From Candidatus Woesearchaeota archaeon (GTDB lineage Archaea > Nanobdellota > Nanobdellia > Pacearchaeales > GW2011-AR1): a DNA stretch of 64,000 nucleotides. Where the stretch lies: positions 4,173-68,172 of the forward strand of contig CAYQKM010000001.1 in NCBI GenBank assembly GCA_964418095.1, read 5' to 3'. This document shows positions 6,967 through 43,381 of this stretch, in pieces (the stretch's first letter is position 1; every line of letters starts with the position of its first letter). The notes beneath the pieces were generated by a model. The model searched no databases, had not been told where the DNA came from, and saw nothing but the letters and a program-made list of their open reading frames with translations. A program made the position numbers and the translations under genes.

Positions 6967-7370
6967 TTTGACTCACTTAAATCACTTATATCTTCCATAA
7001 TAGAGTAATTTTTCTTAAACATTAATTCTAATTTACCTTCTTCACCACCATGCTCTCTAATTCCTCCAAAAATACTCTTAAAATAAGAAGCATCTGCACC
7101 TTTACACAAAAATTTTAAAATATCGTATGTTTTCTCATCTACCTGAGTTCTATTTCTAAAATCTTTTTCAAATACTCCTCTTTTATAATCTTCAGCTAAT
7201 CTAACATACTTATCTACAAGGTCCCTAAAATGGATTGATTCATCTCTTTCAGCAAATACTTTTAGTGATTTTGCAAGTTTAATATAATCCACATTATTTA
7301 AATCCTTAACTTTTCTAAAACTTTCTAAAAATTCCCTTGCATCATTTACGCTATATCTTTTCCTTCCCAT
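6963..7370 (-). CDS. hypothetical protein
   Basis: 135-aa ORF heading a two-gene unit with 6742..6966. Confidence 0.4.
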   Translation of the reverse strand: MGRKRYSVNDAREFLESFRKVKDLNNVDYIKLAKSLKVFAERDESIHFRDLVDKYVRLAEDYKRGVFEKDFRNRTQVDEKTYDILKFLCKGADASYFKSIFGGIREHGGEEGKLELMFKKNYSIMEDISDLSESK

Positions 7371-7546
7371 AAGATATATTCTTTAGAGTGCATTTAAATA
7401 CTTTGTTATAAATCTATACTATATTTCACTTTATTATAGATTTCTTATACTATCATAAAGATACTTTATTATAAAATAAAGAAATATCATTTTAAAATTG
7501 ATTATATATAATTATTTAGAATTTATTTTTATACAAAGAAATCACC

Positions 7547-8830
7547 TTACTTCTTTTTTACAATTTCTAAGCACATACCAGCAGCAACTGTTGCTCCAGC
7601 ATCTCTAACTGCGAATCTTCCCATAAATGGATTATCTTTAGCAGTTTCTAAGCATAAATTTCCTTGAGGTCTTATTCTAACTTTAGCAACATCTCCATTC
7701 TTTAAGAAGTCAGGATTTTGTTTTATAGCTTGTCCGGTTTTAGGGTCAATTTGTTCTATTAATTCTGTAAATTGACAAGGAACTTGAGCTGTGTGTATAT
7801 GGAATACTGGAGTATATCCTTTAGCTAACACTGTAGGGTGATTTATTACTGCAATTTGAGCAATAAACTCTTCAACTATTGGTATTGGAGAATTTGCCTC
7901 GCAGATAACATCTCCTCTAGCAATATCTTTTTTTCCTACGCCTCTAATATTAACACCTACATTCATACCAGCAGGAGCATCAGGTAAAGTTTCATGATGA
8001 GCTTCAATAGTCTTTATTTCACCTGGGATTCCAGTTCCAGTTCTTCCTGGAAGGATTATAACTTTCTGTCCAACTTTCATTATACCAGTTTCAACTTTTC
8101 CAACAGGAACAGTTCCAATTCCTGTAATTTCATATACATCCTGAACTGGCATTCTCATTGGTAAATTTGTTGGTAATTCTGGAGCAGGGAATAAATCTAT
8201 TTGTTCCACAATACTTGGTCCCTTATACCAAGGCATTTTATCTGTTTTCTTAAAAATATTATCTCCTTGCAATCCACTCACAGCCAAGAAAGGTGTGTTG
8301 TCAGGATTTATTCCAACTTGTTTTAATAATTTTCCTACATCTTCTTTAACTGCCTTGAATCTGTCTTCTTTGTATTCAACAGCATCCATTTTATTTACAG
8401 CAATAGCAAGATTCTTTACACCCATTGTTCTTAAAAGCCATAAGTGTTCTGTTGTTTGTGGTTGAACACCAGCAGGAGCAGCAATAACCAAGAAAGCAGC
8501 ATCTGCTTGTGAAGCACCAGTAATCATGTTCTTAACAAAGTCTCTGTGTCCAGGTGCATCAATGATTGTGATTTCATATTTTTGAGTAATTAATTTTTTA
8601 TAAGACAAATCAATTGTAACTCCTCTTTCTCTTTCTTCTTTAATATTATCCATTACATAAGCAAACTCAAATCCAGCTTTTCCATATTTTTGAGCTTCAG
8701 CTCTTAGTTTAGCCATTTCTTGTTCTGATACTGCTCCACCATCAAACATTAGTCTTCCTACTGTTGTTGATTTTCCAGCATCAACGTGTCCCACGAACAC
8801 TACATTCATTGTTGGTTTTTCTCTAGCCAT
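7547..8830 (-). CDS. tuf: translation elongation factor aEF-1 alpha
   Basis: G1 motif [22 protein letters not shown]; about 427 aa. Confidence 0.95.
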
Positions 8831-24584: not shown

Positions 24585-27296
24585 TTATCCGCACCCCATC
24601 CCATTATCATGCTCACAATTTTTACATTTAGGAGAGTGGCATCCTGCCTCAAAATAATATTCTAAACTTCCACATCTTTCACATATAAATTTTTTATCTA
24701 ATTTTCCATTAGTTCCAGATATTTCAATTTCATCATCTCCTGAAACTCTGCTTGCTTGAGATAAAATTGATTTATATTCAGGTGTTCCTCTTTCAATTTT
24801 CCTTAAATCTTTTTTATTAACAACTTGAATCAATTCTCCTGTAATCTCATCTCTTTTAAGAATACCATTTCTTAAAAAATAGTCTTCAAAAACTAATCCT
24901 GCAGCATGCTCAATAGATTTTATTCTTCTTGGTCCAATTCCTTCATCTTCACTTGAAAAAGGAGATTCTAATCTTTTAACTAACTCTGCATAATCTGGAT
25001 TATGTCCTCTCAATATTTCTGTTCTATCCATGCCTGATTGAGAAAATGTAACACTCGTAGCAGCACCTATTGGAGCTCTAACCTGAAAATCTTCATCAGG
25101 AATAAAATAAGCTTTTTTAGTTTTATCATCAACATATAAATTACTTGTCAAAATAAAATGCAAGCTGTCTTTATTCTCTATTCTCTTAATTTTATATTTA
25201 GTTGAGTGAGGTTTTATATCTAATAAAGGATGAGGTTTTACACTCTTTTGTACAAGTTCAATATTCTCTAATTTACTTTTTTTAAGAACAGCATCTCTCG
25301 AGCCCTCCCTATAAATTGTAACTCCTTTACACCCTTCTTCCCAGGCAGTCTTATATAGTTTGTCAACTAAATCTGTTCCAACTTTTTCAGGCAAGTTTAT
25401 TGTTACACTAATTGAATGGTCTATCCATTTTTGTATTGCTCCCTGCATCTTCACCTTTTGAACCCAGTCAACATCATTTGCAGATGCTCTATAATAAGGA
25501 GATTTCTTTAATATCTCTTCTAATTCAGCTTCTTTTTCTTTATTGAGCATACTCTCTTCTGCAGTTTTTTTTACTTCATCTACATTATAGTCATTAATCT
25601 TTAGCCAATCTTCAAATTTATGATGAAATACTTTGTACCTTTGCCATTTATCTCCTTGCTCATCTACTTCATCAACTCTGTTATTAGAATCATTTTGATT
25701 AACTTTCTTTTTTCTTTCATAAACAGGTGAAAAAACAGGCTCTATTCCAGAAGTTGTTTGTGCCATCATACTTACTGTGCCTCCTGGAGCTATTGTTAAC
25801 ATTGAAATGTTTCTCCTTCCATGTTTAATCATCTCTTCATAGAGTTGAGGATCTTCTTTTTTTATTCTTTGTATAAAAGGATTATTTTTTTCTTTTTCTG
25901 AATCATATATTGGAAACTTACCTCTTTCTTTTGCTAACTCAACTGAGCTTCTATATGCTTCAACTGCAAATGTTTTATGGACTTCTGTTGCAAATTCTGT
26001 TGCTTCTTTAGTTCCATATGTTAATCCTAGTGCTGCAAGCATATCTCCTTCTCCTGTTATTCCTGTTCCTGTTCTTCTTCCTATTATTGCCTTATCTTTT
26101 ATTTTTTCCCATAATTTTTTTTCAGTGTATTTTGTTTCTTCATCTTCTGGGTCACTATTTATTTTTTTTAATATTTCATCAATTTTTTCAATTTCCATAT
26201 CAATAATATCATCATTCATTCTTTGAGCATATCCTGTGTGTTTCTTGAATAGCTCAAAATCAAATTTAGCTTCTTTAGTAAATGGATTATCAACATAGCT
26301 AAATAAATTTACAGCTAATAATCTACACGAATCATAAGGGCATAGAGGTATTTCACCACACGGATTAGTTGAAACAGTTTTAAATCCTGACTCACCATAA
26401 CAATCTGGAATAGACTCTCTTAAAACAGTATCCCAAAATAATACACCTGGCTCAGCAGATTTCCAAGCATTATTAATTATTTTATCCCAGAGTGATTTAG
26501 CATTAACTGTTTTACTATATTTTGGATTATCTGAATTTATTGGAAATTGTTGTATGTGTTCTCTTTCAGAATAAACTGCTTTCATAAAATCATCAGTTAT
26601 TTTTACAGAGATATTTGCTCCTGTAACTTTCCCTGTTTCAAGTTTAGCATCAATAAATTTTTCTGCATCTGGATGATCCACTGATAAACTCAACATTAAA
26701 GCTCCTCTTCTTCCATCTTGAGCAACCTCTCTTGTTGAATTAGAGTATCTCTCCATAAAGGGAACAATTCCAGTTGAAGTTAAAGCACTATTAAGAACAG
26801 CCATCCCTTTAGGTCTTATATACGATAAATCATGTCCTACTCCACCTCTCCTTTTCATTAATTGAACTTGCTCTTGATCAGTTTTCATTATTGCACCATA
26901 AGAATCTGAAGAACATTCATCATTCCCAATAACAAAGCAATTAGACAGTGAAATAATTTGATTAGTGTTTCCTATACCAGACATAGGACTTCCTTGAGGA
27001 ATAATATATTTGAAGCGATCCATTAGCCCAAATAATTCTTCAGACTTCATAGGATTAGCATATTTCTTTTCAATTCTCTCAAATTCATAAGCTAGCCTCT
27101 TATGCATATCTGTTGGAGTTTTTTCATATAAAACAATATTTGCTAAATCTTTTTCATTTTTTTGATTAGAAGAGTTTTTTAAAGCATATTTATCTAAAAA
27201 TGCATTTGCTGCTAAAGCATCACCCCTGAAATATTCTTTTGATTCTTCAAATGCTTCTTGGTAGTTATAGGTCTTTTTTTCTAAATTTTCTCCCAT
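24585..27296 (-). CDS. nrdJ: ribonucleoside-diphosphate/triphosphate reductase, class II (B12-dependent) type
   Basis: 903 aa; active-site NPCGEIPL; C-terminal Cys-rich Zn ribbon (CERCGS...CHSPKCKNCEHDNGMGCG), typical of archaeal class II RNRs. Confidence 0.8.
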   Translation of the reverse strand: MGENLEKKTYNYQEAFEESKEYFRGDALAANAFLDKYALKNSSNQKNEKDLANIVLYEKTPTDMHKRLAYEFERIEKKYANPMKSEELFGLMDRFKYIIPQGSPMSGIGNTNQIISLSNCFVIGNDECSSDSYGAIMKTDQEQVQLMKRRGGVGHDLSYIRPKGMAVLNSALTSTGIVPFMERYSNSTREVAQDGRRGALMLSLSVDHPDAEKFIDAKLETGKVTGANISVKITDDFMKAVYSEREHIQQFPINSDNPKYSKTVNAKSLWDKIINNAWKSAEPGVLFWDTVLRESIPDCYGESGFKTVSTNPCGEIPLCPYDSCRLLAVNLFSYVDNPFTKEAKFDFELFKKHTGYAQRMNDDIIDMEIEKIDEILKKINSDPEDEETKYTEKKLWEKIKDKAIIGRRTGTGITGEGDMLAALGLTYGTKEATEFATEVHKTFAVEAYRSSVELAKERGKFPIYDSEKEKNNPFIQRIKKEDPQLYEEMIKHGRRNISMLTIAPGGTVSMMAQTTSGIEPVFSPVYERKKKVNQNDSNNRVDEVDEQGDKWQRYKVFHHKFEDWLKINDYNVDEVKKTAEESMLNKEKEAELEEILKKSPYYRASANDVDWVQKVKMQGAIQKWIDHSISVTINLPEKVGTDLVDKLYKTAWEEGCKGVTIYREGSRDAVLKKSKLENIELVQKSVKPHPLLDIKPHSTKYKIKRIENKDSLHFILTSNLYVDDKTKKAYFIPDEDFQVRAPIGAATSVTFSQSGMDRTEILRGHNPDYAELVKRLESPFSSEDEGIGPRRIKSIEHAAGLVFEDYFLRNGILKRDEITGELIQVVNKKDLRKIERGTPEYKSILSQASRVSGDDEIEISGTNGKLDKKFICERCGSLEYYFEAGCHSPKCKNCEHDNGMGCG

Positions 27297-27309
27297 CTTT
27301 TTTACCTTC

Positions 27310-27747
27310 TTATAATTCTTTCATCTCCTGTTTAAAATCATTTATATCTTGAAATTGCCTATATACTGATGCAAATCTTACATAAGCTATTTCATCAAGT
27401 TTTTTTAGTTTCTTCATAACTAATTCTCCTATTACTGAACTTTTAATCTCCTTTTTCCCTGCTTTTCTTATTTGCTCATCTATTTGATTTATCATCGTGT
27501 TTACCTTGTCTTGAGGAACAGGGCGCTTCTCAAGTGCCTTGCTTATACCAGCCTCAAGTTTTTTAATATCAAATTTTTCTCTGCGTCCATCTTTTTTTAT
27601 TATGTATAAGTCTGTTCTTTCAATTCTTTCATAAGTTGTAAATCTCTTTTTGCATTTCAAGCACTCTCTTCTTCTCCTTATCACATTAAGAGAGTCTCTT
27701 TTATCAGTCACTTTTGATTCATCATTACCACAATATGGGCAGTTCAT
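27310..27747 (-). CDS. nrdR: NrdR transcriptional repressor (Zn ribbon plus ATP-cone)
   Basis: N-terminal Zn ribbon MNCPYCG...CLKC, then an ATP-cone region; 145 aa. Sits immediately upstream of nrdJ, 13-bp gap. Confidence 0.85.
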   Translation of the reverse strand: MNCPYCGNDESKVTDKRDSLNVIRRRRECLKCKKRFTTYERIERTDLYIIKKDGRREKFDIKKLEAGISKALEKRPVPQDKVNTMINQIDEQIRKAGKKEIKSSVIGELVMKKLKKLDEIAYVRFASVYRQFQDINDFKQEMKEL

Positions 27748-30306: not shown

Positions 30307-31761
30307 TTACTTCAATAATTTTCCTAACTCTTCAAATCCATTTAATAATTCTTCAATTTCTTTTTTAGCTTCTTTTAGAATAACATTATTTTGCCTGTAA
30401 GTTATTTCAATCTCTTCTTCTTTTCTATATTTGTTAATAGATAAATCAAAATCATTAGATTTTATCTCTTCAATTGGGACAAAGAAATGTTTCTTAGTCC
30501 TATCTTCATTATCTTCTTTGTTTCTTTTTTCAAATCTTTCTAATATATCTGGAATATCATTCTTTTCAGGCTGGGGTATCCTTTTATCATCTAAACTATA
30601 ACCATCTGCTTCCATTTTATAGAACCAAACTTTTTCAGTAGGTTCGCCTTTTGTAAAAAATAGAACAGCAGTAGAAACTCCTGCATATGGTTTAAATACC
30701 CCCGAAGGCATAGATATAATAGCATCAAGCCTGCATTTTTCTAATAATAACTTTCTTATTGACTTGTGTGCCTTGGAATTACCAAATAAAACTCCATCCG
30801 GCACTATAACAGAACATCTTCCTCCCACAGATAAAGAATTATACATTAATTCTAAAAATAACAGTTCTGTTTTACTAGTGCTTATTGTAAATTCGTCTGA
30901 CTTTTCACTTTCATTTATAGATCCTTTGAATGGAGGATTAGCTAAAATTAAATCATATGTTCCATTTTCATTATATCTCTTGGATAATGTATCTTCTCCT
31001 TTAATTTGAGGATCAGTTATTCCGTGCATCATTAAATTCATAACCGCAATTCTAACCATTGTTCTATCAATATCATATCCATATAAAGATTCTTCATCTA
31101 ATATTTTCTTTTTTTGAGGGGTTAATGTGCTTACTCCATTTTTCTTGTTTCTATTCAAAATATACTCATAAGCATTAACTAAAAATCCAGCTGTTCCACA
31201 CGCAGGGTCTAATATTCTGTCTCCTAATTCTGGGTTTGCAAGTTCCACCATCATCTTAATTATATGCCTTGGAGTTCTGAATTGTCCATTTTTACCTGCA
31301 GTTGTTAGTTCAGATAGAAGGTACTCATAAATATCTCCTTGTGTATCCTGATTTTGTTCTTTAATATGTAAATCATTAATTATATTTACTGCTTCAATTA
31401 ATAAAGAAGCTGTTGGAAGAGAAAAACTTGCATCTTTCATGTATTTAGAATATAATGAATCTTTTTCTCCGAGTTCTCTCATAAATGGAAAGACAACATC
31501 TCTTACATGAGCTAGGATTCTATCAGAAGGCATCTCAGTCCAAACAGACCATCTGCAATTTTCATGTCCTGTAAATATAGAATTGAACTTAATGCCTTTT
31601 AATGTTGCATTTTGTTGCTCCAGAACATCTTTATCCTGCATTTTCTTCATGAAGATAAGATATGATATTTGCTCAATTGCCTGAAGAGGATTGCTAATGC
31701 CTCCGCTCCAGAATTTATCCCATAACTTGCGTATTTTTGATTTAAGGTCAGCATGTAACAT
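30307..31761 (-). CDS. hsdM: Type I restriction-modification system, M subunit (N6-adenine DNA methyltransferase)
   Basis: Motif I DPACGTAGFL and motif IV ILANPPFKG; 484 aa. Confidence 0.9.
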   Translation of the reverse strand: MLHADLKSKIRKLWDKFWSGGISNPLQAIEQISYLIFMKKMQDKDVLEQQNATLKGIKFNSIFTGHENCRWSVWTEMPSDRILAHVRDVVFPFMRELGEKDSLYSKYMKDASFSLPTASLLIEAVNIINDLHIKEQNQDTQGDIYEYLLSELTTAGKNGQFRTPRHIIKMMVELANPELGDRILDPACGTAGFLVNAYEYILNRNKKNGVSTLTPQKKKILDEESLYGYDIDRTMVRIAVMNLMMHGITDPQIKGEDTLSKRYNENGTYDLILANPPFKGSINESEKSDEFTISTSKTELLFLELMYNSLSVGGRCSVIVPDGVLFGNSKAHKSIRKLLLEKCRLDAIISMPSGVFKPYAGVSTAVLFFTKGEPTEKVWFYKMEADGYSLDDKRIPQPEKNDIPDILERFEKRNKEDNEDRTKKHFFVPIEEIKSNDFDLSINKYRKEEEIEITYRQNNVILKEAKKEIEELLNGFEELGKLLK

Positions 31762-31763
31762 GT

Positions 31764-32597
31764 TTATTGTTGTGAATCCTCCTTTTTAGATTTTTTTAGA
31801 AAGGTAAGATTTTCAAATAAATTAGTAAACTTATCAATTAGCCTTTCTTGTTTTTCTAGATTTATTTTAATATCTGTTTCTACTCTTTTTATGTTTGCTT
31901 TTGGAAAATTATAAAATTTGTCTCCACTATTTAAATGGATATATTCTTCATCTTGTTTAATTAGCCTACCAGTAAATTTTTTTTCATTTAAATCTATAAT
32001 TTTAACTTCATTATATTTAATTGTCTTTGCTGTATGAAGGACAATTATTTTATTTAGTGTTGGCAATAAACAGATTAAGATAAAAATACGGACTATCCAA
32101 TTATCAAAAAATAAAAAAATGTTTATAGAGATGAAGATAGTTAAGTATCCAATTATTAAAACAAATATTTGATTAGGCAAGGTCATGAAAAATTTCTTAA
32201 AGAACTGATTTAGTTTTGTTTTCGTTTTCAAATCTATTCCAAATTTTTTGATATTTCTCAAACACACCTCATAAAAATAGGAATCTTTTTTATTTCTTAT
32301 TATTTCAAAGATTTTCATTTTAATATACAAATAAAAATACAATAAACTATAAATTAACCAAAAAAGCAAAAATCCAACTATTGTTAAATTTAATTTTAAA
32401 TTAGGAAAATAATAAAAAAATAACAATGGGATTATGATGTATATTAAAAATAGGATAAAACCAATTATATAGTTAAGGCTCTTATTTTCTTTGGAGGGAT
32501 AAAAATCTAACACGACCTTGCCCAAATAAAATGAGAGAATTCCAGCTATACTGATAAACAATGTTATCCCTCCTGGGGTTAAATATTCTTCAATCAT
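31764..32597 (-). CDS. integral membrane protein (about 6 TM) with C-terminal soluble domain, embedded between hsdS and hsdM
   Basis: Highly hydrophobic N-terminal two-thirds. Gaps to neighbours are 2 nt upstream and 2 nt downstream, consistent with an operon. Confidence 0.5.
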   Translation of the reverse strand: MIEEYLTPGGITLFISIAGILSFYLGKVVLDFYPSKENKSLNYIIGFILFLIYIIIPLLFFYYFPNLKLNLTIVGFLLFWLIYSLLYFYLYIKMKIFEIIRNKKDSYFYEVCLRNIKKFGIDLKTKTKLNQFFKKFFMTLPNQIFVLIIGYLTIFISINIFLFFDNWIVRIFILICLLPTLNKIIVLHTAKTIKYNEVKIIDLNEKKFTGRLIKQDEEYIHLNSGDKFYNFPKANIKRVETDIKINLEKQERLIDKFTNLFENLTFLKKSKKEDSQQ

Positions 32598-32599
32598 CT

Positions 32600-33658
32600 C
32601 TACAACTCTCCTCTAAACGCCTTCTGCATCAAAGAATTAAATAATTCTTCAGAGTTTTGTTTAGTTTTATTAATATTTTCTTTCATCTTCTCAACTTGTT
32701 CAACAATTGAAGCAAATTTTTGCTGAAGGGAGAGAGGGACGTCTACGAAATCCATATTATAGATATCGTACCTGTTCAAACCAGGTATTGCAGTAGACCT
32801 GTCCAATTTTAAATTATATGATTTTAATAAATAATATAAAAAAATAAAATTTGTTCCCTTAAATGGAATTAGATAATAGGTAGTATCTATAGCCCAAAAA
32901 TCATCTTTAGAATAATTAACTTTTCCTATTGAACCTTTTCTTCCGATAACAATTCCCGGGCCTTTAATTAAAAACTTTGAATGATTTCCAACTACTCCGT
33001 TAGACCCATAAACAGAATATTTTCCACCATCTCTCTCTTTTTCGGGTAATCCTTTACCATATGCTAACTCAAACATTTCTTTTCCTTTTTTTCTCTCAAA
33101 TCCTTTATTATAAAACATCTCATAAAAAACACTCTTTAAATATTCATCAAGCAATTCCTCTGCCCTCTGCCCTCTTTCCCTTAGCTTTTCTGCTTTTTCT
33201 AAGATTGAAACAATTCTTTCTTGTTCTTTTAAGTCTGGAATACCGTTAGAGAAAGGAAGGGGGATTTTTATCTTAATCAAATAAGACTTTGAGAGGTGCT
33301 TTAAACCAGCCCCTTTAAATCCTTGTTCTAAAAGGTATATTCTTGATTTTAGTAGAAAATAGAGAAACTTTGCATTGTGGTCTACCACTCTTACCACAAA
33401 ACAATCATTGGAAGATGAGAAATTCTCATTACAATAATGCACCGCAGCCTTACCACCGGTTGACAGAATCAAATGTGCTCCTTCATAATCTGGATTGTCA
33501 ATAAATTTTGTCTGCTCTGGACTTGATGTAAAAAATTTGTACTTTCCTTCATCGAAGCCATCTCCGGCTTTTTTACCGCTTTTAGGCTCAAACGTTAATA
33601 TCTCCTTTAATTCAACTTCTTTCCATTCAATTTGATTAGTTTGTGTTTGTTGTGTCAT
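32600..33658 (-). CDS. hsdS: Type I restriction-modification system, S (specificity) subunit
   Basis: 352 aa; two target-recognition-like halves separated by a helical conserved region; position between hsdR and hsdM. Confidence 0.7.
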   Translation of the reverse strand: MTQQTQTNQIEWKEVELKEILTFEPKSGKKAGDGFDEGKYKFFTSSPEQTKFIDNPDYEGAHLILSTGGKAAVHYCNENFSSSNDCFVVRVVDHNAKFLYFLLKSRIYLLEQGFKGAGLKHLSKSYLIKIKIPLPFSNGIPDLKEQERIVSILEKAEKLRERGQRAEELLDEYLKSVFYEMFYNKGFERKKGKEMFELAYGKGLPEKERDGGKYSVYGSNGVVGNHSKFLIKGPGIVIGRKGSIGKVNYSKDDFWAIDTTYYLIPFKGTNFIFLYYLLKSYNLKLDRSTAIPGLNRYDIYNMDFVDVPLSLQQKFASIVEQVEKMKENINKTKQNSEELFNSLMQKAFRGEL

Positions 33659-33659
33659 T

Positions 33660-33965
33660 TTATTTGAAGATTAAAATTTTTAGTAAAATTGTTGAAATTG
33701 TGAATAATGAAAGAGGAACATGAAACTCAAAATTAAAAATCTTAAGATTGATAGTCCAAAAAATATTTTTTAATTTATCATCTGAAAATAATTCTATCAG
33801 ACCACCGCAAATTGCTGAAAAAACCAAGCCTATCCCCAAAGAAATAAATAGATTAGTTAAATTATCTATAGTTTTTATAGATAATCCCATCAAAGTTCCT
33901 ACTAATACAGTTAAAATTACTATGTAAATTAAAATCTGAAGAGATTTTTTAACACTCATTTTCAT
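33660..33965 (-). CDS. small integral membrane protein immediately upstream of hsdS
   Basis: 101 aa, three hydrophobic helices, 1-nt gap to hsdS. Confidence 0.4.
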   Translation of the reverse strand: MKMSVKKSLQILIYIVILTVLVGTLMGLSIKTIDNLTNLFISLGIGLVFSAICGGLIELFSDDKLKNIFWTINLKIFNFEFHVPLSLFTISTILLKILIFK

Positions 33966-34065
33966 TCTTCCATTCTCTCCTTGACTTTTATGTTTATTCT
34001 CTTACCTTTTTTCATTTTATCTTTCTCTCCGAAACATTTTTATAGTTCATCTTATTATATCTTTT

Positions 34066-34156
34066 GTAAGCGGGCCGGTTCCATAAAAGGTTTGATTATT
34101 CAAACTGACCAGCTCTTTATGAGTGTGATTGGTTGGGAAGACCGCTAATCGCTTAC
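34066..34156. ncRNA. GC-rich structured element (candidate small RNA or hairpin) between the small membrane ORF and ORF 34153..34659
   Basis: Terminal 7-bp inverted repeat gtaagcg...cgcttac closes about 90 nt. Contains an internal hairpin ggtttga-ttat-tcaaac and an ACA trinucleotide right after the stem. GC content is well above the local background. Confidence 0.3.
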
Positions 34157-34659
34157 ACTTTATTTTTTTTTAATTCCTCCCAATTTTGTTTTATAAGATT
34201 AAAGGTTATCTCTACTACATTCAATTTTCTCCCTCGAATTTGCTTGTTTAGTTTTAATGCTCTTCTTCTGTAAATCCCCGCGTAGTTATCTGCAAAAGAA
34301 CCTATATTCCTCCCAAGCCTTTTCCTAAATTCAGAAATATTTATTATTTCAAAATCAACTGGTTTCAATAATTGATTTAACACTTTCTTAACAATGTTAA
34401 AATCTTCATCATTACAGATAATTAATGTCTTTATATTTCTACGGACATTTTTAACAAGCAAGGAAATGCAAATAGCATAAAGTTTAGCTGAGTCTTCGTA
34501 AATATTTTTTTGAAATAATTTTCTTTTTATTAGTTTAACAAGATTCCCTCTTAGGGCACATCCATAATGTATCTCTTTATTTGTGCTAACTAAAGCAATT
34601 CCAATTGTTCTTTCTTCATAAATTCTTCCGCTCATATCAATATGAAAATCTTTTTTCAT
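34153..34659 (-). CDS. hypothetical protein between hsdR and hsdS
   Basis: 168-aa basic ORF with no recognisable motif. Confidence 0.4.
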   Translation of the reverse strand: MKKDFHIDMSGRIYEERTIGIALVSTNKEIHYGCALRGNLVKLIKRKLFQKNIYEDSAKLYAICISLLVKNVRRNIKTLIICNDEDFNIVKKVLNQLLKPVDFEIINISEFRKRLGRNIGSFADNYAGIYRRRALKLNKQIRGRKLNVVEITFNLIKQNWEELKKNKV

Positions 34660-34959
34660 TTCTCTTCCTCCAATCCGCTCTCCTTTCTAATCATCTCCCT
34701 AAGTTTTGTATTTATTGTCTTTCCTTCTTGCTCACAAATTTTTTTGAAAAAGAGAAATTCACTCATGTAAAGGCGAGTACCGACTACTTTACGCTCCTCA
34801 CCACTTAAAGGGTTATTTTTTAAAACCATAAAAAAAGGAAATATCCTATACTATTTAAAGATTTAGATAATTAACTGTTTACACTTTTTTTCACTTTTTG
34901 AGCAGATACAGTTCTTTTCTCTCTATCTAATGTACAAATACTAAAAGAGAATACAGATT

Positions 34960-37707
34960 TTATTTCCATTTTAATTTATTACACCTTTGTACAATTATCT
35001 CAAGCTGTTTTTTAGTGAAAATGTCTAATGGTCTTTTTTCTGCTAAAGGGTGTTCTGCAAAGCTCTTTAATTCAATATGTTTTGTCCTGATAAAGACTTG
35101 CTCTAAGAATCTCAAAAATTTAAGCTGTTCAGAATTATAGTGCTCGTTTTTATCTGCTACATATTTATCAAACTCCCATTTAATCATTTCTTGTGGATCT
35201 GGCAAATCTTTTATTTCTAATAATCCTCTTAAAAACACTATAAAATCTCTATCTCTTTGGATATTTTCAATAGTAAGAGTAGGGTTTAATTCTCTAAGCT
35301 GTTTTTCAATTTCTAAAAGTTCTTTAGAAGTAACCCCCTCCCCATCTTTAATTTTCTTTAGTAATTCATTACTATTTATGAAATATTCATAGTCTGGGCT
35401 TTCTTTTACTAGCATTATCTCTTTTTCAACCTTCAAAACAATATCAGGAGCATTAATTTCTACCATCTTTTCTCTGTCTGGTTCATAAAAAATCATCAAA
35501 GGAGCTATTTCCTTTATTAAGAAATCAACATCTTCAAAAGTAATTTCTTCCCAAAATGTTTCTTGTTTGATTCTTATTAAGTCTTTTTGCTTTTGCTTTA
35601 TTGTATCTAAGTTTTTATCCCAAATCAATTTTACTCTTTTAACTACAAATTCTTGTATTTTTCCTATTTCTTCTTTATTGTTTTCTTTAATATAACCAAA
35701 TAGTTTAATACATTTGGAGACAAAACCATAAACTTTAGAATTTTCAGAAGGCGCATAAATTAATAATGGGGAAATATCATCTCTTAATTCCTTAACATGC
35801 GCCTTTAAATCAAACTTAGAAGAGACAATCTTTTTAATCATCCCTTTTTTTTCAAGAACTAATGGAGAATTTAGATCAATATTTTTTATAGTATCTCTAA
35901 TTTGTTTTTCTATAACCTTTCTCTCTTTATCACCTAGCCTTTTTTCTAATGTATTTACTTGTTCTAAGAAAATTCTTGTCTTAGCATCTGTTTCAGGAGA
36001 TTTTTGTTTCAAATTATCTAATTTATGCATTAAAACATTAGACCAATCTCCAAATTTAAAGTCTAAAATTAAAAAATCTTCTTTTATGTGTTGCCCATCC
36101 TTATTAGTTGGAAGCCATTCTTTATATTTACAGGCAGAGATATTTCTTGTTCCTCTTCCAAGCATCTGCCAAAATCTTATTGGAGACATAACTGGTTTAA
36201 CAAAAACTAAATTCATTACTTCAGGTATATCTACCCCTGTATCTAAAACCCCTACAGATAAAGCAATCCTTGGACTATCTCTCTTTACAAATCTTTTTAC
36301 TTCATCCATGTAACGAGATTTATCTGAAGTAATTACCTTTACATCTTTAGATAAATTTGGATATAATTTATGAAAGAGTAGCTCTAATGCTTCTGCATGC
36401 TTTACACTAGCACAAAAGAATATACTTTTACATGGGCGATTGTCATCTGATTTGTAACATCTTTCAATAAATTCTCTAATTATTAATTCATTTGTTTTCT
36501 TATCAGTAAAAGATCTTTCAAACTTGGAACCAGGAGTTTGAAATTTTTCTGGTTCTCTTTCTTGCTCTTTTAATTTTTGTTGTAATTCTTTACTTAATTT
36601 TTTTCCTTCAATTCCTAGAGATAAAATCTTGGTTTCAATAATCTCTGAAACATAAGGAACTAGAACACCATCATTCACTGCATCCAAATAATCATACTTC
36701 ACTGTAGGTTTATTCTCATCACAATTAAATAGTTTAAATGTGTCTCTTGTTTCTATAGATGAAGGAGTTGCAGTTAACCCTATTTTAAGGGCATCAAAAT
36801 ATTTGAATATGTCATTATTTCTATCATAATAAGATCTATGAGCTTCGTCAAATATAATTAAATCAAATGCCCCTGTTCCAAACATCTCATAAAATTTACC
36901 TCTCGGTTTTTGAGAAGACATTAATGTTTGTATAGTAGATACATACAATCTAGCACTGCTAGAGTATCCTTCTACATTTAGCTCGCAAACAGGATCATCT
37001 GGAAAAAACTCTTTAAATCCATTTTCTTTAGCTTGATTCCCTAAAGAAATTCTATCAGTTACAAATAATACTTTTTGGACATAGTCTGCTTTTCTAAGAG
37101 CTTCAATAATTGCCATTGCAACTCTAGTTTTGCCTGTTCCTGTTGCCATATTAACCAATGCTTCCCTATGGCCTTTGGAAAAATGCTCTAACACTCCCTT
37201 TACAGCTTCTATACCTCTCATCCTATCAACAATTTTGGGGTTAATCTTAATATTAGATGGGTCTTTTTTCTTTTGCATTAACTCAACAATTCTATGCAAA
37301 TCTTTTTGAGAAAATGGCAGTTTTACCTGTCTCCTTCTATCTAAATCATCAACATAATACCATTTTTCTCCATTTGTTAAGAAAATAGGAATTTTTCTTT
37401 TAATTTGCTTTTCAATATCTTCTCTATATGTTCTTGCTTGTATCTCTCCATTTTCAACACCAACAGAAGTCTTTTTTGACTCTATTATTGCAAGTGGACT
37501 CCTATCATCATCTAAAAGTAAATAATCAATAAAATGATCTACTCCTTTTTCAATTCCTGCTTCACGACCTATATATTCTTTTGTGTTAAAATCAGATTTT
37601 ACAGAATTTACTTCTTCTTTTACATAACCTCCTCTAATTTTCCAACCTACTCTTTCTAAGACTGGGTCAATTAGATTTTTTCTTGTTTCTGCTTCTGATA
37701 AACTCAT
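34960..37707 (-). CDS. hsdR: Type I restriction enzyme, R subunit (SF2 helicase/endonuclease)
   Basis: N-terminal MSLSEAETRKNLIDPVLERVGW, Walker A MATGTGKT, DEAH box IIFDEAHRS; 915 aa. Confidence 0.9.
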   Translation of the reverse strand: MSLSEAETRKNLIDPVLERVGWKIRGGYVKEEVNSVKSDFNTKEYIGREAGIEKGVDHFIDYLLLDDDRSPLAIIESKKTSVGVENGEIQARTYREDIEKQIKRKIPIFLTNGEKWYYVDDLDRRRQVKLPFSQKDLHRIVELMQKKKDPSNIKINPKIVDRMRGIEAVKGVLEHFSKGHREALVNMATGTGKTRVAMAIIEALRKADYVQKVLFVTDRISLGNQAKENGFKEFFPDDPVCELNVEGYSSSARLYVSTIQTLMSSQKPRGKFYEMFGTGAFDLIIFDEAHRSYYDRNNDIFKYFDALKIGLTATPSSIETRDTFKLFNCDENKPTVKYDYLDAVNDGVLVPYVSEIIETKILSLGIEGKKLSKELQQKLKEQEREPEKFQTPGSKFERSFTDKKTNELIIREFIERCYKSDDNRPCKSIFFCASVKHAEALELLFHKLYPNLSKDVKVITSDKSRYMDEVKRFVKRDSPRIALSVGVLDTGVDIPEVMNLVFVKPVMSPIRFWQMLGRGTRNISACKYKEWLPTNKDGQHIKEDFLILDFKFGDWSNVLMHKLDNLKQKSPETDAKTRIFLEQVNTLEKRLGDKERKVIEKQIRDTIKNIDLNSPLVLEKKGMIKKIVSSKFDLKAHVKELRDDISPLLIYAPSENSKVYGFVSKCIKLFGYIKENNKEEIGKIQEFVVKRVKLIWDKNLDTIKQKQKDLIRIKQETFWEEITFEDVDFLIKEIAPLMIFYEPDREKMVEINAPDIVLKVEKEIMLVKESPDYEYFINSNELLKKIKDGEGVTSKELLEIEKQLRELNPTLTIENIQRDRDFIVFLRGLLEIKDLPDPQEMIKWEFDKYVADKNEHYNSEQLKFLRFLEQVFIRTKHIELKSFAEHPLAEKRPLDIFTKKQLEIIVQRCNKLKWK

Positions 37708-37755: not shown

Positions 37756-38475
37756 TCATCTCTTTCTCTCCATCCAGCTCCAATAACGCTCTTTTCCGAT
37801 AACTACATGATCCAAAACAGTTATACCAATTGTTTTTCCAACTTCAATAAATCTTTTTGTTATATCTAAATCTTCTTGACTCGGTTCTGAATTTCCACTT
37901 GGATGGTTATGCACAAGTATAATTCGAGCCGCACTGTTTTTTATTGCAGGCTTGAAAACTTCTCTTGGATGAAGAATTGCTGAATCAAGTATGCCTTTAG
38001 AAATAAATTCCTTTTTTATTATATTGTTCTGATTATTCAATAATAAAATATAGAAATGTTCTTCTTTTTTATCTTTTAACTCTTCATGCATTAAATCAAA
38101 AACATCTTTTGCACAGGAAATCTTCTTTACAGGAGTTTTTGATTGATTTATTCTTCTTTGAATTTCTGCCATTGTTAGTATTTGCATTGCTTTGTTTTGC
38201 CCAATCCCTTTTATCTTTTGCAGCTCTATTAGTGAGCATTCAAAAAGCTTGCCTAAACCATATTCTTTAATCATCCTATTAGACATATCAATAGCATTTT
38301 CTCCGCCTTCATATTTTCCTTCTTTATTCTTTTTACCTCTTGTTCCTGTTCTCAGAATAATTGCAAAAAGCTCTGCATCACTTAATGCTTCTGGACCATA
38401 TTTAAGAAATCTTTCTCTTGGTCTATTTGAACTCGGAAGGTCCTTTATTTTCATAAAGAAAATAAGAAAAAACAA
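37756..38475 (-). CDS. radC: RadC-like JAB/MPN-domain protein
   Basis: JAMM motif HNHPSGNSEPSQED; N-terminal helix-hairpin-helix-like region; 239 aa. Confidence 0.8.
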   Translation of the reverse strand: MFFLIFFMKIKDLPSSNRPRERFLKYGPEALSDAELFAIILRTGTRGKKNKEGKYEGGENAIDMSNRMIKEYGLGKLFECSLIELQKIKGIGQNKAMQILTMAEIQRRINQSKTPVKKISCAKDVFDLMHEELKDKKEEHFYILLLNNQNNIIKKEFISKGILDSAILHPREVFKPAIKNSAARIILVHNHPSGNSEPSQEDLDITKRFIEVGKTIGITVLDHVVIGKERYWSWMERKR

Positions 38476-40000: not shown

Positions 40001-40669
40001 TTGCATTTTTATGCAAAATTATATAAATCAAAAAAACTACCTCAATCCTATAAAGAGAGTGAATTTATGGGAAAAAAAATATTAATTGCAACAGTTTACA
40101 GCCCAGAGCCTGTGCTTTTAGCAGCTACAAGACTTGGACCAGATAGGATGATTCTTCTAACAGATAAAGAACAAAATAAAGAGCAAGACACCTCAGTCAA
40201 ACTTATCCAAAATTCATTAGGCAAAGTTATAGACATAAAAGTAATAAAAACAGACAATTACAATATAGTTGAAGTAGCTAAAAAAGTTGTTGAGATAATT
40301 GACATGCAACCTAATGATGACCACATTTTCATCAACATAACAAGTGGAAGAAAGACAAAAGCTATAGGACTTTTATTTGCAGCATATGCTAGACATGATA
40401 AAGTTAGTAAAATAGCATATAACCCTGAAGAAGATAAAAACAAAGTAATCTACTTACCCCGTCTAAGCTTTAAGCTCACAGAAAGTCAAAAAGCAATTCT
40501 AGAAGAAATAGATAAGCACCCAGGTTTAAGCATTGCAGATATCTCAAAAAAAGTTGAACTTTCAACAGCAATGCTCTATAGAGCAATAGGGGAATTAGAA
40601 GACCTGGATTTCATAAGTAAAGAAAACGGTTATGAATTAACTGATGCTGGAAGGATTGCGAGGTTATAA
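40001..40669 (+). CDS. Csa3-like transcriptional regulator: CARF (Rossmann-like sensor) domain plus C-terminal winged HTH
   Basis: N-terminal KKILIATVYSPEPV strand and CARF core motif HIFINITSGRKTKAIGLLFAAYA (N-x-T-x-G-x-K-T). C-terminal wHTH (LSIADISKKVELSTAMLYRAIGELEDLDFI). The ORF-track start is a TTG; the likelier start is the internal Met (MGKKILIATVY) near 40067. Confidence 0.65.
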   Translation: MHFYAKLYKSKKLPQSYKESEFMGKKILIATVYSPEPVLLAATRLGPDRMILLTDKEQNKEQDTSVKLIQNSLGKVIDIKVIKTDNYNIVEVAKKVVEIIDMQPNDDHIFINITSGRKTKAIGLLFAAYARHDKVSKIAYNPEEDKNKVIYLPRLSFKLTESQKAILEEIDKHPGLSIADISKKVELSTAMLYRAIGELEDLDFISKENGYELTDAGRIARL

Positions 40670-40714: not shown

Positions 40715-43381
40715 ATGACAGACTTAAACTTTCTCAAAGATCTCAATGAGGAAAAGCAAAAGATAGCAAAAACAGATGGAAATGTTCTTGTTGTTGCAAA
40801 CCCTGGAACAGGAAAAACAATGCTTCTCGCCTACAAATTCATTTATCTATTAAAAAAAGAGATTAAGCCAGAAGAAATTCTTTGCTTAACATTCACAAAC
40901 AAAGCAAAAAGAGAACTTGAAGATAGAATAATCTCTCTAATAAAAAAATTAAATATGGACATAGACATCTCAAAGCTTAATGTCCATACATTCCACTCTT
41001 ACACTCTTGACTTTATGGAAGAAGAGAAAGTAGTCTCTTCAAACTTGCTTAGATACTCAATTTACCAATATCTAAAAGAATATGAGATACTAAATTATTC
41101 TGACGAATATTTACTAGAAACAATTGTCCCAAGAATGGAAAATCTTTTAAGATATTTAAAGAGTTTTGGAATCACCCCAGATAAAATTAATTTAAATGAA
41201 TCTAAAAAATTTATAGAAGAAGATGGAAAACTTACAAAACAAGAACTTGACAAATTTGCTGAACACTTTGTAGACATCTTCAAGTATTATGAAAAATCCA
41301 AAGAGAAAAAAGGAGTAGATTATTCAGATATGCTCATAAATTACTTAAATATAAATAACCCGTCAAAATTCAAGTATGTTCTTGTTGATGAGCTGCAAGA
41401 TGTAAATACAATTGAAGCAGATATAGCATTAAAATCAGGAGAAAATTTTGTTGCAGTAGGAGATAAAAAGCAAGCAATATTTGGCTTCCAAGGAGGCTCC
41501 ATACTAAACTTTGAGAAATTCAGTAACTCAACTAATTTTATACTATCAGACAATTTTAGAAGCACAAACGAAGTCCTTGATTACTCAAAAGAAGCATTCA
41601 CTTCAAAAACAAAAGACTCTGTCCATAAAGAAGATTTAAAGAATTTAAAAAATAGAGAAGCAAAACCTGCCCTTAAACCTAAAATTTACGAAGCTGAAAG
41701 AGAAAACACCTACAAAGTTGCTTCTGAATTAACTAGAAAACTATCCAGAGATTATAAGAAAGTTGCAATAATTGCAAGAACAAACTATCAAATAATGGAA
41801 ATGTCCAAAGAATTAAAAAATAGAGGAATAGAACATTCTTCTACTTTCTTCTCAGCCTCAGCAAATGCTAAAAATAAGATAATAGATTTCATTAAAGGAA
41901 TATTAAGCAGAGATGTGCAAATAATAAAGAACTCTATGTTTACCCCTTTCTTCCCATGCACAATACAAGAGGCTTTTAATATAGCTAATCAAAAAACAAA
42001 AACAATTGAAGATATTTACAGATTATGTCCAGAATTTAAAAAACTAAGAGAATCAATAAAAACAATTGAAGATTTAAACATTATATTCAAAGAAAGAATA
42101 ATTCCAATATCAATCAATTATGGAAAAGAGTTCCTACTGTCAGCACTAAATGTCCAAGAAGCATTAGGAGAGGCAATAAGGGTTATTGATGTTCTTAATA
42201 TGAAAAACATAATAGACTACTTAAGATCCTCAGACTTTTTAGTTGATGGGTCAGATGTTGAAAAACAAATAATCCTCACTACAGTTCACAAGGCAAAAGG
42301 CAAAGAGTATGATGCTGTAATTTACATTCCAAGTAAAACAAGAGACACTTCTAGTTTCCAAGATAAGATAGTTGAAGCAATCTTAAAATCTAAAGGAATA
42401 GATGCTAAAGAAGAGCTTGAAGAAGAAGCATTAAGAATAGATTTTGTTGCATTTACAAGGGCAAAAACAAAGCTTTGCATAGTTACAAATAAACTTGAAG
42501 AACACTTAAATAAATATGCAGAAGCAGACACAATACAAGTAGAATCCATTGAAAGCTCTAGTTTAAATGAAAAATCAAAAAGAGCATTTGATTTGTTTGT
42601 AAATGGAGAGTATGATAAAGCAAGAGAATTAATGGAAAATGACAAATCTTGGATAATCTCTTACATAAAAAACCATTTTGAGAATCTTCCACACATTTCT
42701 TTTTCAGGTCTTAATAATGACCCTTATGAGTATCTTATGTACAATATTTTAAACATAAAGAAATTTTCATCTTCATTAAGCATAGGAGGAGATGTTCATA
42801 AAATTGCGAGCCTTTTATGTGAAAATAAAAAATGTGAGGTGGAAGAAGAATACAAACCTTACAAAGAAAATATAGAAAAACTTCTTAAAGAAATAAAAAA
42901 ACAATATCCAGAACTTGATGAAGTAGAACAAGAAGTAAAAATACCACTCTCTAAAATTGTTGAAACCAAAGATGAAATTCTCTTTAAAGGATTTATTGAT
43001 GCAGTATTCAAAAACAAAGATAATTATCTAATAGTTGACTGGAAAACAGACAAGGAAATGAGGAGCGCTTCAGATCATAGACAGCAACTTGAAGCATATA
43101 GAAGAGCATTTTCTATTAAGAAAAACATCCCTTTAAACAAAATAAAAGTAGCTATAGGGTTTATTGGGTTAAGAAGAACAATAAACACTGGAACAATTGA
43201 AAGCACATTTGATGAAAAACAACCAGTTAAATCATCTTTTGAAACATTCACAAAAAAAGTAAATAAAATACTAGAATGGAAAAAGAATCCAGACTCCTTC
43301 TTCAAAGATTTAATGGAGAAAGAATCTGATGAAGATCTTTGGAGAGCTGTTGTAGAGCAATACAAGAAAGAAAATAATTAA
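40715..43381 (+). CDS. UvrD/PcrA-family SF1 helicase fused to a C-terminal RecB/Cas4-family (PD-(D/E)xK) nuclease domain, 888 aa
   Basis: Helicase motifs: I VVANPGTGKT, Ia LTFTNKA, II VDELQDV, III GDKKQAIFGFQGG, IV NFRST, VI TTVHKAKGKEYDAV. C-terminal nuclease motifs: GFIDAVFK ... LIVDWKTDK and QLEAYRRAF (QxxxY). Confidence 0.8.
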   Translation: MTDLNFLKDLNEEKQKIAKTDGNVLVVANPGTGKTMLLAYKFIYLLKKEIKPEEILCLTFTNKAKRELEDRIISLIKKLNMDIDISKLNVHTFHSYTLDFMEEEKVVSSNLLRYSIYQYLKEYEILNYSDEYLLETIVPRMENLLRYLKSFGITPDKINLNESKKFIEEDGKLTKQELDKFAEHFVDIFKYYEKSKEKKGVDYSDMLINYLNINNPSKFKYVLVDELQDVNTIEADIALKSGENFVAVGDKKQAIFGFQGGSILNFEKFSNSTNFILSDNFRSTNEVLDYSKEAFTSKTKDSVHKEDLKNLKNREAKPALKPKIYEAERENTYKVASELTRKLSRDYKKVAIIARTNYQIMEMSKELKNRGIEHSSTFFSASANAKNKIIDFIKGILSRDVQIIKNSMFTPFFPCTIQEAFNIANQKTKTIEDIYRLCPEFKKLRESIKTIEDLNIIFKERIIPISINYGKEFLLSALNVQEALGEAIRVIDVLNMKNIIDYLRSSDFLVDGSDVEKQIILTTVHKAKGKEYDAVIYIPSKTRDTSSFQDKIVEAILKSKGIDAKEELEEEALRIDFVAFTRAKTKLCIVTNKLEEHLNKYAEADTIQVESIESSSLNEKSKRAFDLFVNGEYDKARELMENDKSWIISYIKNHFENLPHISFSGLNNDPYEYLMYNILNIKKFSSSLSIGGDVHKIASLLCENKKCEVEEEYKPYKENIEKLLKEIKKQYPELDEVEQEVKIPLSKIVETKDEILFKGFIDAVFKNKDNYLIVDWKTDKEMRSASDHRQQLEAYRRAFSIKKNIPLNKIKVAIGFIGLRRTINTGTIESTFDEKQPVKSSFETFTKKVNKILEWKKNPDSFFKDLMEKESDEDLWRAVVEQYKKENN

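Follow-up and report, generated by a model that had tools for sequence, protein, structure and literature searches.

A minus-strand gene cluster in a 64,000-nt stretch of contig CAYQKM010000001.1 from a Candidatus Woesearchaeota archaeon (the window, meaning this stretch at its full length) encodes the three subunits of a Type I restriction-modification (R-M) system. Between the specificity gene hsdS and the methyltransferase gene hsdM lies an open reading frame (ORF) for a predicted integral membrane protein of 277 amino acids (aa), X277. Members of the X277 family (X) were found beside R-M methylase or specificity genes in 15 of the 15 distinct loci examined, and the linkage of the family to R-M was thus exclusive in these loci. 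The reading that we favor, with a confidence somewhat below even, is that X277 would be an accessory module dependent on R-M, with the role of a membrane effector or sensor rather than of a housekeeping anchor. The four genes at the center of the argument are the following.

34960-37707, minus strand: hsdR, Type I restriction subunit of 915 aa, EcoAI/EcoEI-like and type IB-like (Pfam, PADLOC, motifs)
32600-33658, minus strand: hsdS, specificity subunit of 352 aa with two target-recognition domains (Methylase_S, Specificity_I)
31764-32597, minus strand: X277, predicted membrane protein of five transmembrane helices, followed by a cytoplasmic beta-barrel (Sm/SH3-like) and a C-terminal helix (AlphaFold2 model, hydropathy, homologues)
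30307-31761, minus strand: hsdM, N6-adenine DNA methyltransferase subunit of 484 aa (N6_Mtase, HsdM_N, MTase_I)

According to the ORF list, the genes on the minus strand are ordered hsdR, ORF57, ORF168, ORF101, hsdS, X277 and hsdM. An earlier reading of the bare sequence (the original prediction) had given this order from hsdR to hsdM correctly but missed the 57-aa ORF at 34656-34829. It had also described gaps of 1-3 nt between the last four genes, which holds (ORF101-hsdS, 1 nt; hsdS-X277, 2 nt; X277-hsdM, 2 nt). The spacing is wider elsewhere in the cluster: hsdR and ORF57 lie 130 nt apart, ORF168 and ORF101 187 nt. The GC content is ~30% throughout the window.

HsdR matched the Pfam families ResIII (5e-36), HSDR_N, Helicase_C and EcoEI_R_C and the PADLOC model REase_I (4.5e-91), and its translation contains the D...ExK (IIESKK), Walker A (ATGTGKT) and DEAH (FDEAHR) motifs. 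It carries the N-terminal PD-(D/E)XK nuclease region, the superfamily 2 helicase/translocase core and the EcoEI-type C-terminal domain of a Type I restriction subunit. Its best NCBIfam model was restrict_EcoAI, for the R subunit of the EcoAI family, at 231 bits; since this is below the equivalog cutoff of 550, we call the subunit IB-like and not an equivalog. HsdM matched N6_Mtase (3e-67) and HsdM_N (1e-12) in Pfam and MTase_I in PADLOC (1.2e-173, 576 bits), and motifs I (DPACGTAGF) and IV (NPPF) of a gamma-class N6-adenine methyltransferase are present in its translation. HsdS matched Methylase_S (7e-32) in two stretches, one for each of two target-recognition domains, and Specificity_I (3.7e-53). 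When hsdS was compared with related operons at the DNA level, the alignable segments were confined to the conserved N-terminal, central and C-terminal regions, as expected with swapped target-recognition domains. By these matches the R, S and M assignments are firm, and as close homologues of the window proteins are labelled Pacearchaeota or Nanoarchaeota, the cluster is apparently a complete and functional Type I (IB-like) operon of a Pacearchaeota-like DPANN archaeon. The ORF list and the domain matches together bear out the claim of a Type I R-M operon with embedded membrane ORFs.

The position of X was compared across loci. Eleven loci carry X277 or a close homologue of it (the window itself, L006, L009, L012, L014, L016, L017, L020/L027, L022, L025 and L026), and in all 11 X follows hsdS and precedes hsdM, the overall order being hsdR ... 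hsdS ... X ... hsdM; two of them at contig ends show one flank of X only, namely hsdM in L026, which is cut upstream of X, and hsdS in L020/L027. In most loci X begins within hsdS or within the ORF before it, with an overlap of 4-8 nt (usually 4 nt), or 0-2 nt away from its end. Divergent members keep the same company. P0012, which is 25% identical to X277, is located between hsdS and an hsdM whose product is 86% identical to that of the window. P0017 (Woesearchaeota, 22% identity) is the last gene in the order hsdR-hsdM-hsdS-TM112-X, and P0031 (16% identity) is the last in hsdM-hsdS-TM100-X. P0010 overlaps the 3′ end of an Eco57I/MmeI-like N6-methylase gene. As the HsdM proteins of L031 and L033 are just 29-32% identical to that of the window, the link between X and R-M is not confined to one Type I lineage and holds in three gene orders. 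The question raised by the original prediction, whether the 277-aa ORF is always found with hsdS and hsdM, is therefore answered in favor of a functional link by the 15 loci; the refuting outcome that it had named, homologues in non-R-M contexts only, did not occur.

X is a small family. A word-indexed search of 5.8 billion proteins returned seven clusters of X277 homologues at 45-54% identity, and the close homologues are 40-55% identical overall. A HMMER profile run against 1.84 billion cluster representatives recovered 28 of them at E<1e-3, nearly all of which are full-length proteins of 250-290 aa. The alignment of seven X sequences (A1) contains 73 invariant columns, and the pairwise ratios of nonsynonymous to synonymous substitution rates (dN/dS) are 0.11-0.30, with dS near saturation. 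In sequence terms, X277 is a genuine, constrained and rare family under purifying selection. Across 22 divergent members, the best conserved parts are the hairpin formed by the first transmembrane helix, its loop and the second helix (31-37% identity), with the recurring signature YFGK...KPxKE...YxxG...P, and the barrel (30%), whereas the soluble helices are the least conserved (16-17%). Because conservation is concentrated in the hairpin and the barrel, X is likely to be more than an anchor.

We found no match to X277 in viral contigs (IMG/VR), phages (INPHARED) or plasmids (PLSDB), and matches in BFVD were to small barrels only; thus a viral or plasmid origin was rejected. Two family members depart from the usual architecture. 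P0031 (L033, 5329-6576) has an extra C-terminal domain of ~150 aa containing DIDNLVKPVVSALEK, which may represent a nucleic-acid-directed output of the X family; a match of this extension to RusA, a Holliday-junction resolvase, was below the cutoff (E=0.042) and is a mere hint. P0011 (158 aa) joins an X-family C-terminal barrel to a sequence ending in LFNALMQKAFSGEL, a conserved HsdS C-terminal motif, and arose either as a chimera of the assembly or by recombination where hsdS adjoins X.

The architecture of X277 was examined in an AlphaFold2 model built on seven homologues, whose predicted local distance difference test score (pLDDT) is moderate (67). The model contains five transmembrane helices (residues 8-30, 39-63, 73-101, 143-163 and 167-188), in agreement with the hydropathy profile, instead of the roughly six that had been proposed. 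Two helices rich in Lys and Arg occupy residues 105-138, and the fifth transmembrane helix is followed by a bent, five-stranded beta-barrel (197-241) and a long C-terminal helix (248-276). By the positive-inside rule, residues 102-142 and the whole C-terminal part would be cytoplasmic, and the short acidic N-terminus would be outside.

The best PDB matches of the barrel were Hfq/Sm proteins, with Foldseek E-values of 2.5e-3 to 8e-3, none of them ≤1e-3, on a model of pLDDT 67. Against Hfq chains, the target-normalised TM-score was 0.62-0.75 (~0.65) with a root-mean-square deviation of 1-3 Å over ~50 residues. When 22 family members were scanned singly against Pfam, matches to RimP-C, DUF6897 and Hfq appeared, all of them sub-threshold, and sub-threshold matches to the RimP-C SH3 domain, DUF6897, Hfq and Lsm recur in the family. 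The identification of X277 as Hfq by sequence was rejected: hhalign against E. coli Hfq gave a probability of 1.7%, PDB profiles of Hfq/Lsm reached E ~0.3, and the Pfam Hfq model matched just 2 of the 22 members at a best E of 0.069. Since a direct comparison to the E. coli Hfq profile gave nothing significant, we refer to an Sm/SH3-like small barrel and not to a member of the Hfq family. No Pfam, PADLOC (5027 models, PDC candidates included), NCBIfam or PHROG family matched X277. Mechanosensitive channels of the MscS type also place an Sm-like beta domain after transmembrane helices, a likeness to X277 that is architectural only: MS_channel profiles were absent from the match table of X277 itself and from the 25 commonest of 34 families matched by the 22 members at E≤1, and MscS was absent among the top 50 PDB fold matches of the barrel model.

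The interior of the operon turned out to be far more variable than its ends. Between the window and its nearest relative, L009, HsdR is 85%, HsdM 90% and ORF57 70% identical, HsdS is 35% and X 51-54% identical, and the remaining inserted ORFs are unrelated. The same slots in other operons hold genes for DUF3800, DUF2283, Schlafen/AlbA_2-HATPase-helix-turn-helix, Bro-N, NYN, AbiJ/Abi_C and DUF4145 proteins and many unannotated ORFs. Small membrane ORFs recur beside X (c90, c297 and c122 in L009; c152 and c122 in L017; c150 and c227 in L025; c112 in L031; c100 in L033; c52 and c75 in L028), which by blastp at E≤1 are similar neither to each other nor to ORF101 of the window. The interior between the conserved hsdR and hsdM is a cassette-exchange zone, which in the window holds four extra genes of different kinds. 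A search for insertion-type repeats flanking the operon or the ORF57-ORF168 module found only low-identity, AT-rich chance matches.

X itself takes part in this exchange. HsdM of L030 is 86% identical to that of the window, whereas the X proteins encoded in the same slot (L030, 2254-3096; window, 31764-32597) are 25% identical. In the opposite direction, X is 75% and HsdM 70% identical both between L017 and L025 and between L012 and L016. As the identities of X and HsdM are discordant both ways, X appears to be exchanged between operons much like the target-recognition domains of hsdS, with its slot always kept. Such shuffling of alleles is typical of conflict genes, and experiments could make use of the natural allele swap between L030 and the window.

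The interpretation of X277 as an R-M-dependent membrane effector or sensor draws on comparison with two known embedded systems. PrrC is almost exclusively embedded in Type I R-M loci, and the state of the R-M enzyme determines its activity (PMC12707154; Payne et al. 2024, bioRxiv 10.1101/2024.01.29.577857). TgvAB of Vibrio cholerae VPI-2 protects without R-M genes, although 10- to 100-fold less against several phages (PMC11411939). X is embedded like PrrC, whereas the autonomous TgvAB functions without R-M genes, and for this reason we prefer a role for X that depends on R-M. Likewise, the conserved transmembrane hairpin, the possibly ring-forming barrel and the cassette-like diversification argue for an effector or sensor at the host-virus interface over a passive tether. 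In support, genes of the defence type (AbiJ/Abi_C, NYN, Schlafen-AlbA_2 ATPase, DUF3800, DUF4145 and Bro-N) occupy the same slots in related operons.

In the mechanism that we propose, X277 would be made together with HsdS and HsdM through translational coupling, would oligomerise in the membrane, possibly as a ring via its barrel, and would be in physical contact with HsdS or HsdM. It would then serve as a second line of defence that reads the state of the R-M system, analogous in logic to PrrC. Co-transcription of X277 with the Type I genes, and the membrane tethering or gating of the original prediction, are likewise conjectural. A more specific form of the proposal, possible though on the doubtful side, is that the X family is a dedicated membrane subunit or partner of R-M, an oligomeric complex capped by an Sm ring that would turn R-M status or virus attack into a membrane event (pore opening, dormancy or enzyme gating). 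If true, a classical Type I R-M system would for the first time be seen to have an obligate component that is integral to the membrane, and cassette exchange would have diversified this component in DPANN archaea.

Several points weigh against an effector or sensor. The 11 close loci represent one orthologous operon type and amount to about one evolutionary observation, so that independent support for the link between X and R-M comes from about four divergent loci, and the locus count covers 10 of the 28 representatives of the family. The likeness of X277 to Sm/Hfq is weak and exists at the fold level alone (Foldseek E ~3e-3, pLDDT 67, hhalign 1.7%), and X277 has no recognisable catalytic, nucleotide-binding or sensor domain. 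Moreover, the discordance between X and hsdM is equally expected of simple cargo in a recombination hot spot.

This last point leads to the alternative that fares best, although we consider it somewhat unlikely: X would be independent cargo in a recombination or insertion hot spot, such as a stand-alone defence or superinfection-exclusion membrane protein acting alone or with small transmembrane partners, and its link to R-M would be positional. Many unrelated genes do occupy the slots between hsdR, hsdS and hsdM, with different sets of them in operons that are otherwise alike, a member of the ORF168 family was found outside R-M loci, X alleles are shuffled independently of hsdM, and embedded genes elsewhere are often autonomous, as TgvAB is. 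Autonomous cargo should, however, be found elsewhere too, yet all 15 X loci are R-M loci, including those of members at 16-25% identity in different gene orders and those with HsdM at ~30%. X also keeps its slot while all other cargo turns over, and no X was found in the collections of plasmids, phages and viral contigs.

It is unlikely that X is a membrane tether or assembly factor without effector activity of its own, which would hold the M2S1 methylase or the R2M2S1 enzyme at the membrane (at sites of DNA entry or host contact) or control nuclease assembly; this corresponds to the membrane-tethered system of the original prediction. In most loci X directly follows hsdS with tight coupling, and the adjacency to hsdS is kept in three gene orders; the link is to the methylase and specificity genes rather than to hsdR, which is not seen on the short contigs L033 and L028. 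The cytoplasmic barrel and the helices rich in Lys and Arg could provide docking surfaces, and Holubova and colleagues (2004, BBRC 319:375; cited in PMC2481252) reportedly described a membrane association of E. coli Type I enzymes that depends on the enzyme family. A docking partner should, however, co-evolve with HsdM or with the conserved helices of HsdS, whereas X is 25-54% identical on HsdM backgrounds of 86-90% identity. The transmembrane segments of an anchor are usually its least conserved part, and in X they are the most conserved. The rarity of the family (28 members in 1.84 billion) implies that Type I systems generally do not need X, and one member accompanies a single-chain Eco57I-like enzyme that has no hsdS.

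A role in DNA import is highly improbable. In this scenario, X and its small transmembrane partners would open a passage through the membrane, and DNA crossing it would be acted on by the ATP-driven HsdR translocase or by the methylase, for DNA import or nucleotide salvage in a host-dependent symbiont. The points in its favor are contextual. DPANN archaea form cytoplasmic bridges with their hosts, and an exchange of methyltransferases has been proposed (PMC11001535); the conserved hairpin, the possible ring-forming barrel and the small membrane ORFs that recur beside X would also fit. X277 showed, however, no similarity to known DNA-uptake or channel families in Pfam, NCBIfam and PDB profile scans, the family is too rare for a general DPANN uptake route, and nothing ties X to hsdR specifically. 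Finally, the idea that the membrane ORFs are spurious frames in an AT-rich spacer, which a GC content of ~30% might suggest because it favors long chance ORFs rich in Ile, Leu, Phe and Lys codons, is refuted by the 73 invariant positions and dN/dS ratios of X277, by eight clusters of ORF101 homologues at 63-80% identity, and by gene callers that found the same frames in independent assemblies.

Upstream of hsdS lie the second membrane ORF and a spacer.

33660-33965, minus strand: ORF101, small membrane protein with three predicted transmembrane segments (hydropathy, homologue clusters)
33966-34152, minus strand: 187-nt spacer between ORF168 and ORF101, in which no structured RNA was detected

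The hydropathy profile of ORF101 shows three hydrophobic segments, which upholds the number of transmembrane segments originally given, but the length of 101 aa probably has to be revised: the homologues start at its third codon, and therefore the real product is probably 99 aa. The eight homologue clusters share 42 invariant positions. ORF101 was not found in the other X-containing R-M operons, and it had no match on plasmids. Pfam, PADLOC, NCBIfam and PHROGs gave nothing significant; SLATT_1, an effector domain with two transmembrane segments, scored 13.8 bits against a cutoff of 41 (E 0.044) and was discarded. Judging from its homologues, ORF101 is a real gene, possibly a mobile one, for a small protein with three predicted transmembrane segments. 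One homologue, P0161, 77% identical to ORF101, is deposited under a metagenome-assembled genome of a Caldisericia bacterium, which points either to the transfer of a small mobile gene between domains or to a mistake in binning. The spacer had an RNA folding z-score of +0.80 and no Rfam match at E≤1. An upstream ORF of 17 codons (MKKGKRINIKVKERMEE; ~33962-34015, minus strand) ends in an ATGA overlap with the annotated start of ORF101 and may be a chance occurrence in AT-rich DNA.

Three features lie between the spacer and hsdR.

34153-34659, minus strand: ORF168, probable RNase H-like-fold protein of 168 aa, candidate nuclease (AlphaFold2, Foldseek, homologue family)
34656-34829, minus strand: ORF57, probable small DNA-binding protein of the ribbon-helix-helix type (57 aa), candidate regulator (operon homologues, AvtR profile match)
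34852-34859, minus strand: TATA-box-like TTTAAATA, putative archaeal promoter, read from the sequence and centred ~26 nt upstream of the ORF57 ATG

ORF57 overlaps the start of ORF168 by 4 nt (ATGA). The first or the third gene after hsdR is a homologue of ORF57 in L009 (70% identity), L006, L014 and L016, and in L020, whose contig does not include hsdR, a homologue lies upstream of hsdS. The family profile matched AvtR, a ribbon-helix-helix regulator of an archaeal virus (4hv0), at E=0.0026 over positions 11-53, and the alignment shows a V-S-T-R-L strand followed by two helices; Pfam contained no match, and PADLOC, NCBIfam and PHROGs gave nothing significant. ORF57 is probably a ribbon-helix-helix protein conserved in this type of operon, a regulator heading the unit from ORF57 to hsdM. 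From the usual geometry of archaeal promoters, TTTAAATA is a possible promoter of a leaderless transcription unit over the same genes.

ORF168 belongs to a large DPANN family of at least 175 homologue clusters, mostly 55-80% identical and labelled Pacearchaeota or Nanoarchaeota, and it is absent from the related R-M operons. In the one homologous locus examined, P0146 lies between ASCH and DUF2779 genes, with a HEPN_Swt1 gene in the region and no R-M genes nearby. On these two grounds ORF168 was rejected as a part of the R-M system; it appears to be independent cargo inserted in the operon and not specific to R-M. Its AlphaFold2 model has a pLDDT of 92, and the order of secondary-structure elements matches an RNase H-like fold. 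The Foldseek matches are weak (E≥4.5e-3, TM-score 0.24-0.43) and dominated by RNase H-like folds, among them retroviral integrase cores, NurA, RNase HII, QIP exonuclease and a terminase nuclease. Residues D84 and E85 are invariant, and D8, D86 and D124 are nearly so, while Pfam, PADLOC, NCBIfam and PHROGs gave nothing significant. The model suggests that ORF168 is a probable RNase H-fold protein and a candidate nuclease. In L006, a cargo ORF of 265 aa (6980-7777) matched RVT_3 (RNase H-like, "reverse transcriptase-like") at slightly more than the gathering score of that model, and a SWIM zinc finger at slightly less than the corresponding threshold; the ORF is a second RNase H-fold candidate in the slot between hsdR and hsdS, alongside ORF168.

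The surroundings of the operon contain further genes of interest. Next to the operon, several genomes carry a RadC/JAB gene; in the window (37756-38475, minus strand) it lies beside hsdR on the same strand, whereas in L006 (14238-14900), L009 (12603-13265) and L014 (9367-10059) it lies beside hsdM on the opposite strand, and therefore the whole R-M operon appears to be inverted relative to RadC. At 40001-40669 on the plus strand, a gene encodes a protein with CARF (Card1/HFX_2341_N-like) and winged helix-turn-helix domains, and 45 nt after it, at 40715-43381 on the same strand, follows a gene whose 888-aa product fuses a UvrD-type helicase to a PD-(D/E)XK nuclease. The two genes lie ~2.3 kb away from the R-M operon and may form a module of their own for defence or repair, regulated by a signal. 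At 24585-27747 on the minus strand, a gene for an NrdR-like regulator (zinc ribbon and ATP-cone) is located directly upstream of a 903-aa ribonucleotide-reductase-like ORF with several CxxC pairs in its C-terminus.

Defence operons that pair a module acting on DNA or nucleotides with a membrane sensor or effector include Kiwa (KwaA), Zorya (ZorAB), RexB and the transmembrane effectors of CBASS. X277 has no sequence relation or detectable fold relation to these proteins and no PADLOC match, and none of them is a classical Type I R-M system. Residues 197-241 of X277 are predicted as a five-stranded bent barrel that may resemble that of Hfq/Sm proteins, but Hfq is a soluble RNA chaperone, whereas the barrel of X277 is fused to five transmembrane helices and has no significant sequence match. 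To our knowledge, no dedicated membrane subunit of a Type I R-M system has been described. The statement in the original prediction that Type I systems are not known to need membrane components was fair as far as components are concerned, but the embedding of extra genes as such is already well documented by PrrC, TgvAB and the rlo genes.

The rlo genes in the hsd loci of Campylobacter jejuni and the "guilt-by-embedding" candidates (HEC/PDC) are further extra genes nested in Type I operons (bioRxiv 10.1101/2024.01.29.577857). Like TgvAB, they are nested between hsdR, hsdS and hsdM and are often related to defence, a pattern that the variable cargo of our related operons (AbiJ, NYN, Schlafen-like ATPase, DUF3800 and DUF4145) fits. 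The described examples are, however, soluble nucleases or ATPases, whereas X277 is a predicted membrane protein that matches no PADLOC model, and the words "membrane" and "transmembrane" are absent from the text of the preprint by Payne et al. The closest parallel is PrrC of the EcoprrI Type IC locus, a relative of RloC, with which X277 shares exclusive embedding in R-M loci; this is a shared behaviour and not membership of a family. PrrC is a soluble ABC-ATPase with an anticodon nuclease, whereas X277 has five predicted transmembrane helices, a small beta-barrel and an archaeal (DPANN) host, and no ABC-ATPase or anticodon-nuclease match of the PrrC/RloC type was obtained for ORF57, ORF168, ORF101 or X277 in Pfam, PADLOC and NCBIfam.

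Textbooks present Type I R-M systems as cytoplasmic machines, and the few partners known to be embedded with them (PrrC, TgvAB) are soluble; X would add a new class of accessory. One passage in the literature describes the immune repertoire of DPANN archaea beyond CRISPR and R-M as largely unknown (PMC12988326), and X is a concrete candidate for a defence component in these organisms. The family is small and compact and offers natural allele swaps on nearly identical hsdM backbones, so that it is directly testable by heterologous expression. On the sequence comparisons presented here, X277 is a credible new accessory part of R-M systems: the nesting of genes in Type I operons was already known from PrrC, TgvAB and rlo, and what X277 adds to them is a gene of DPANN archaea whose predicted product is integral to the membrane and whose family was seen at R-M loci alone.

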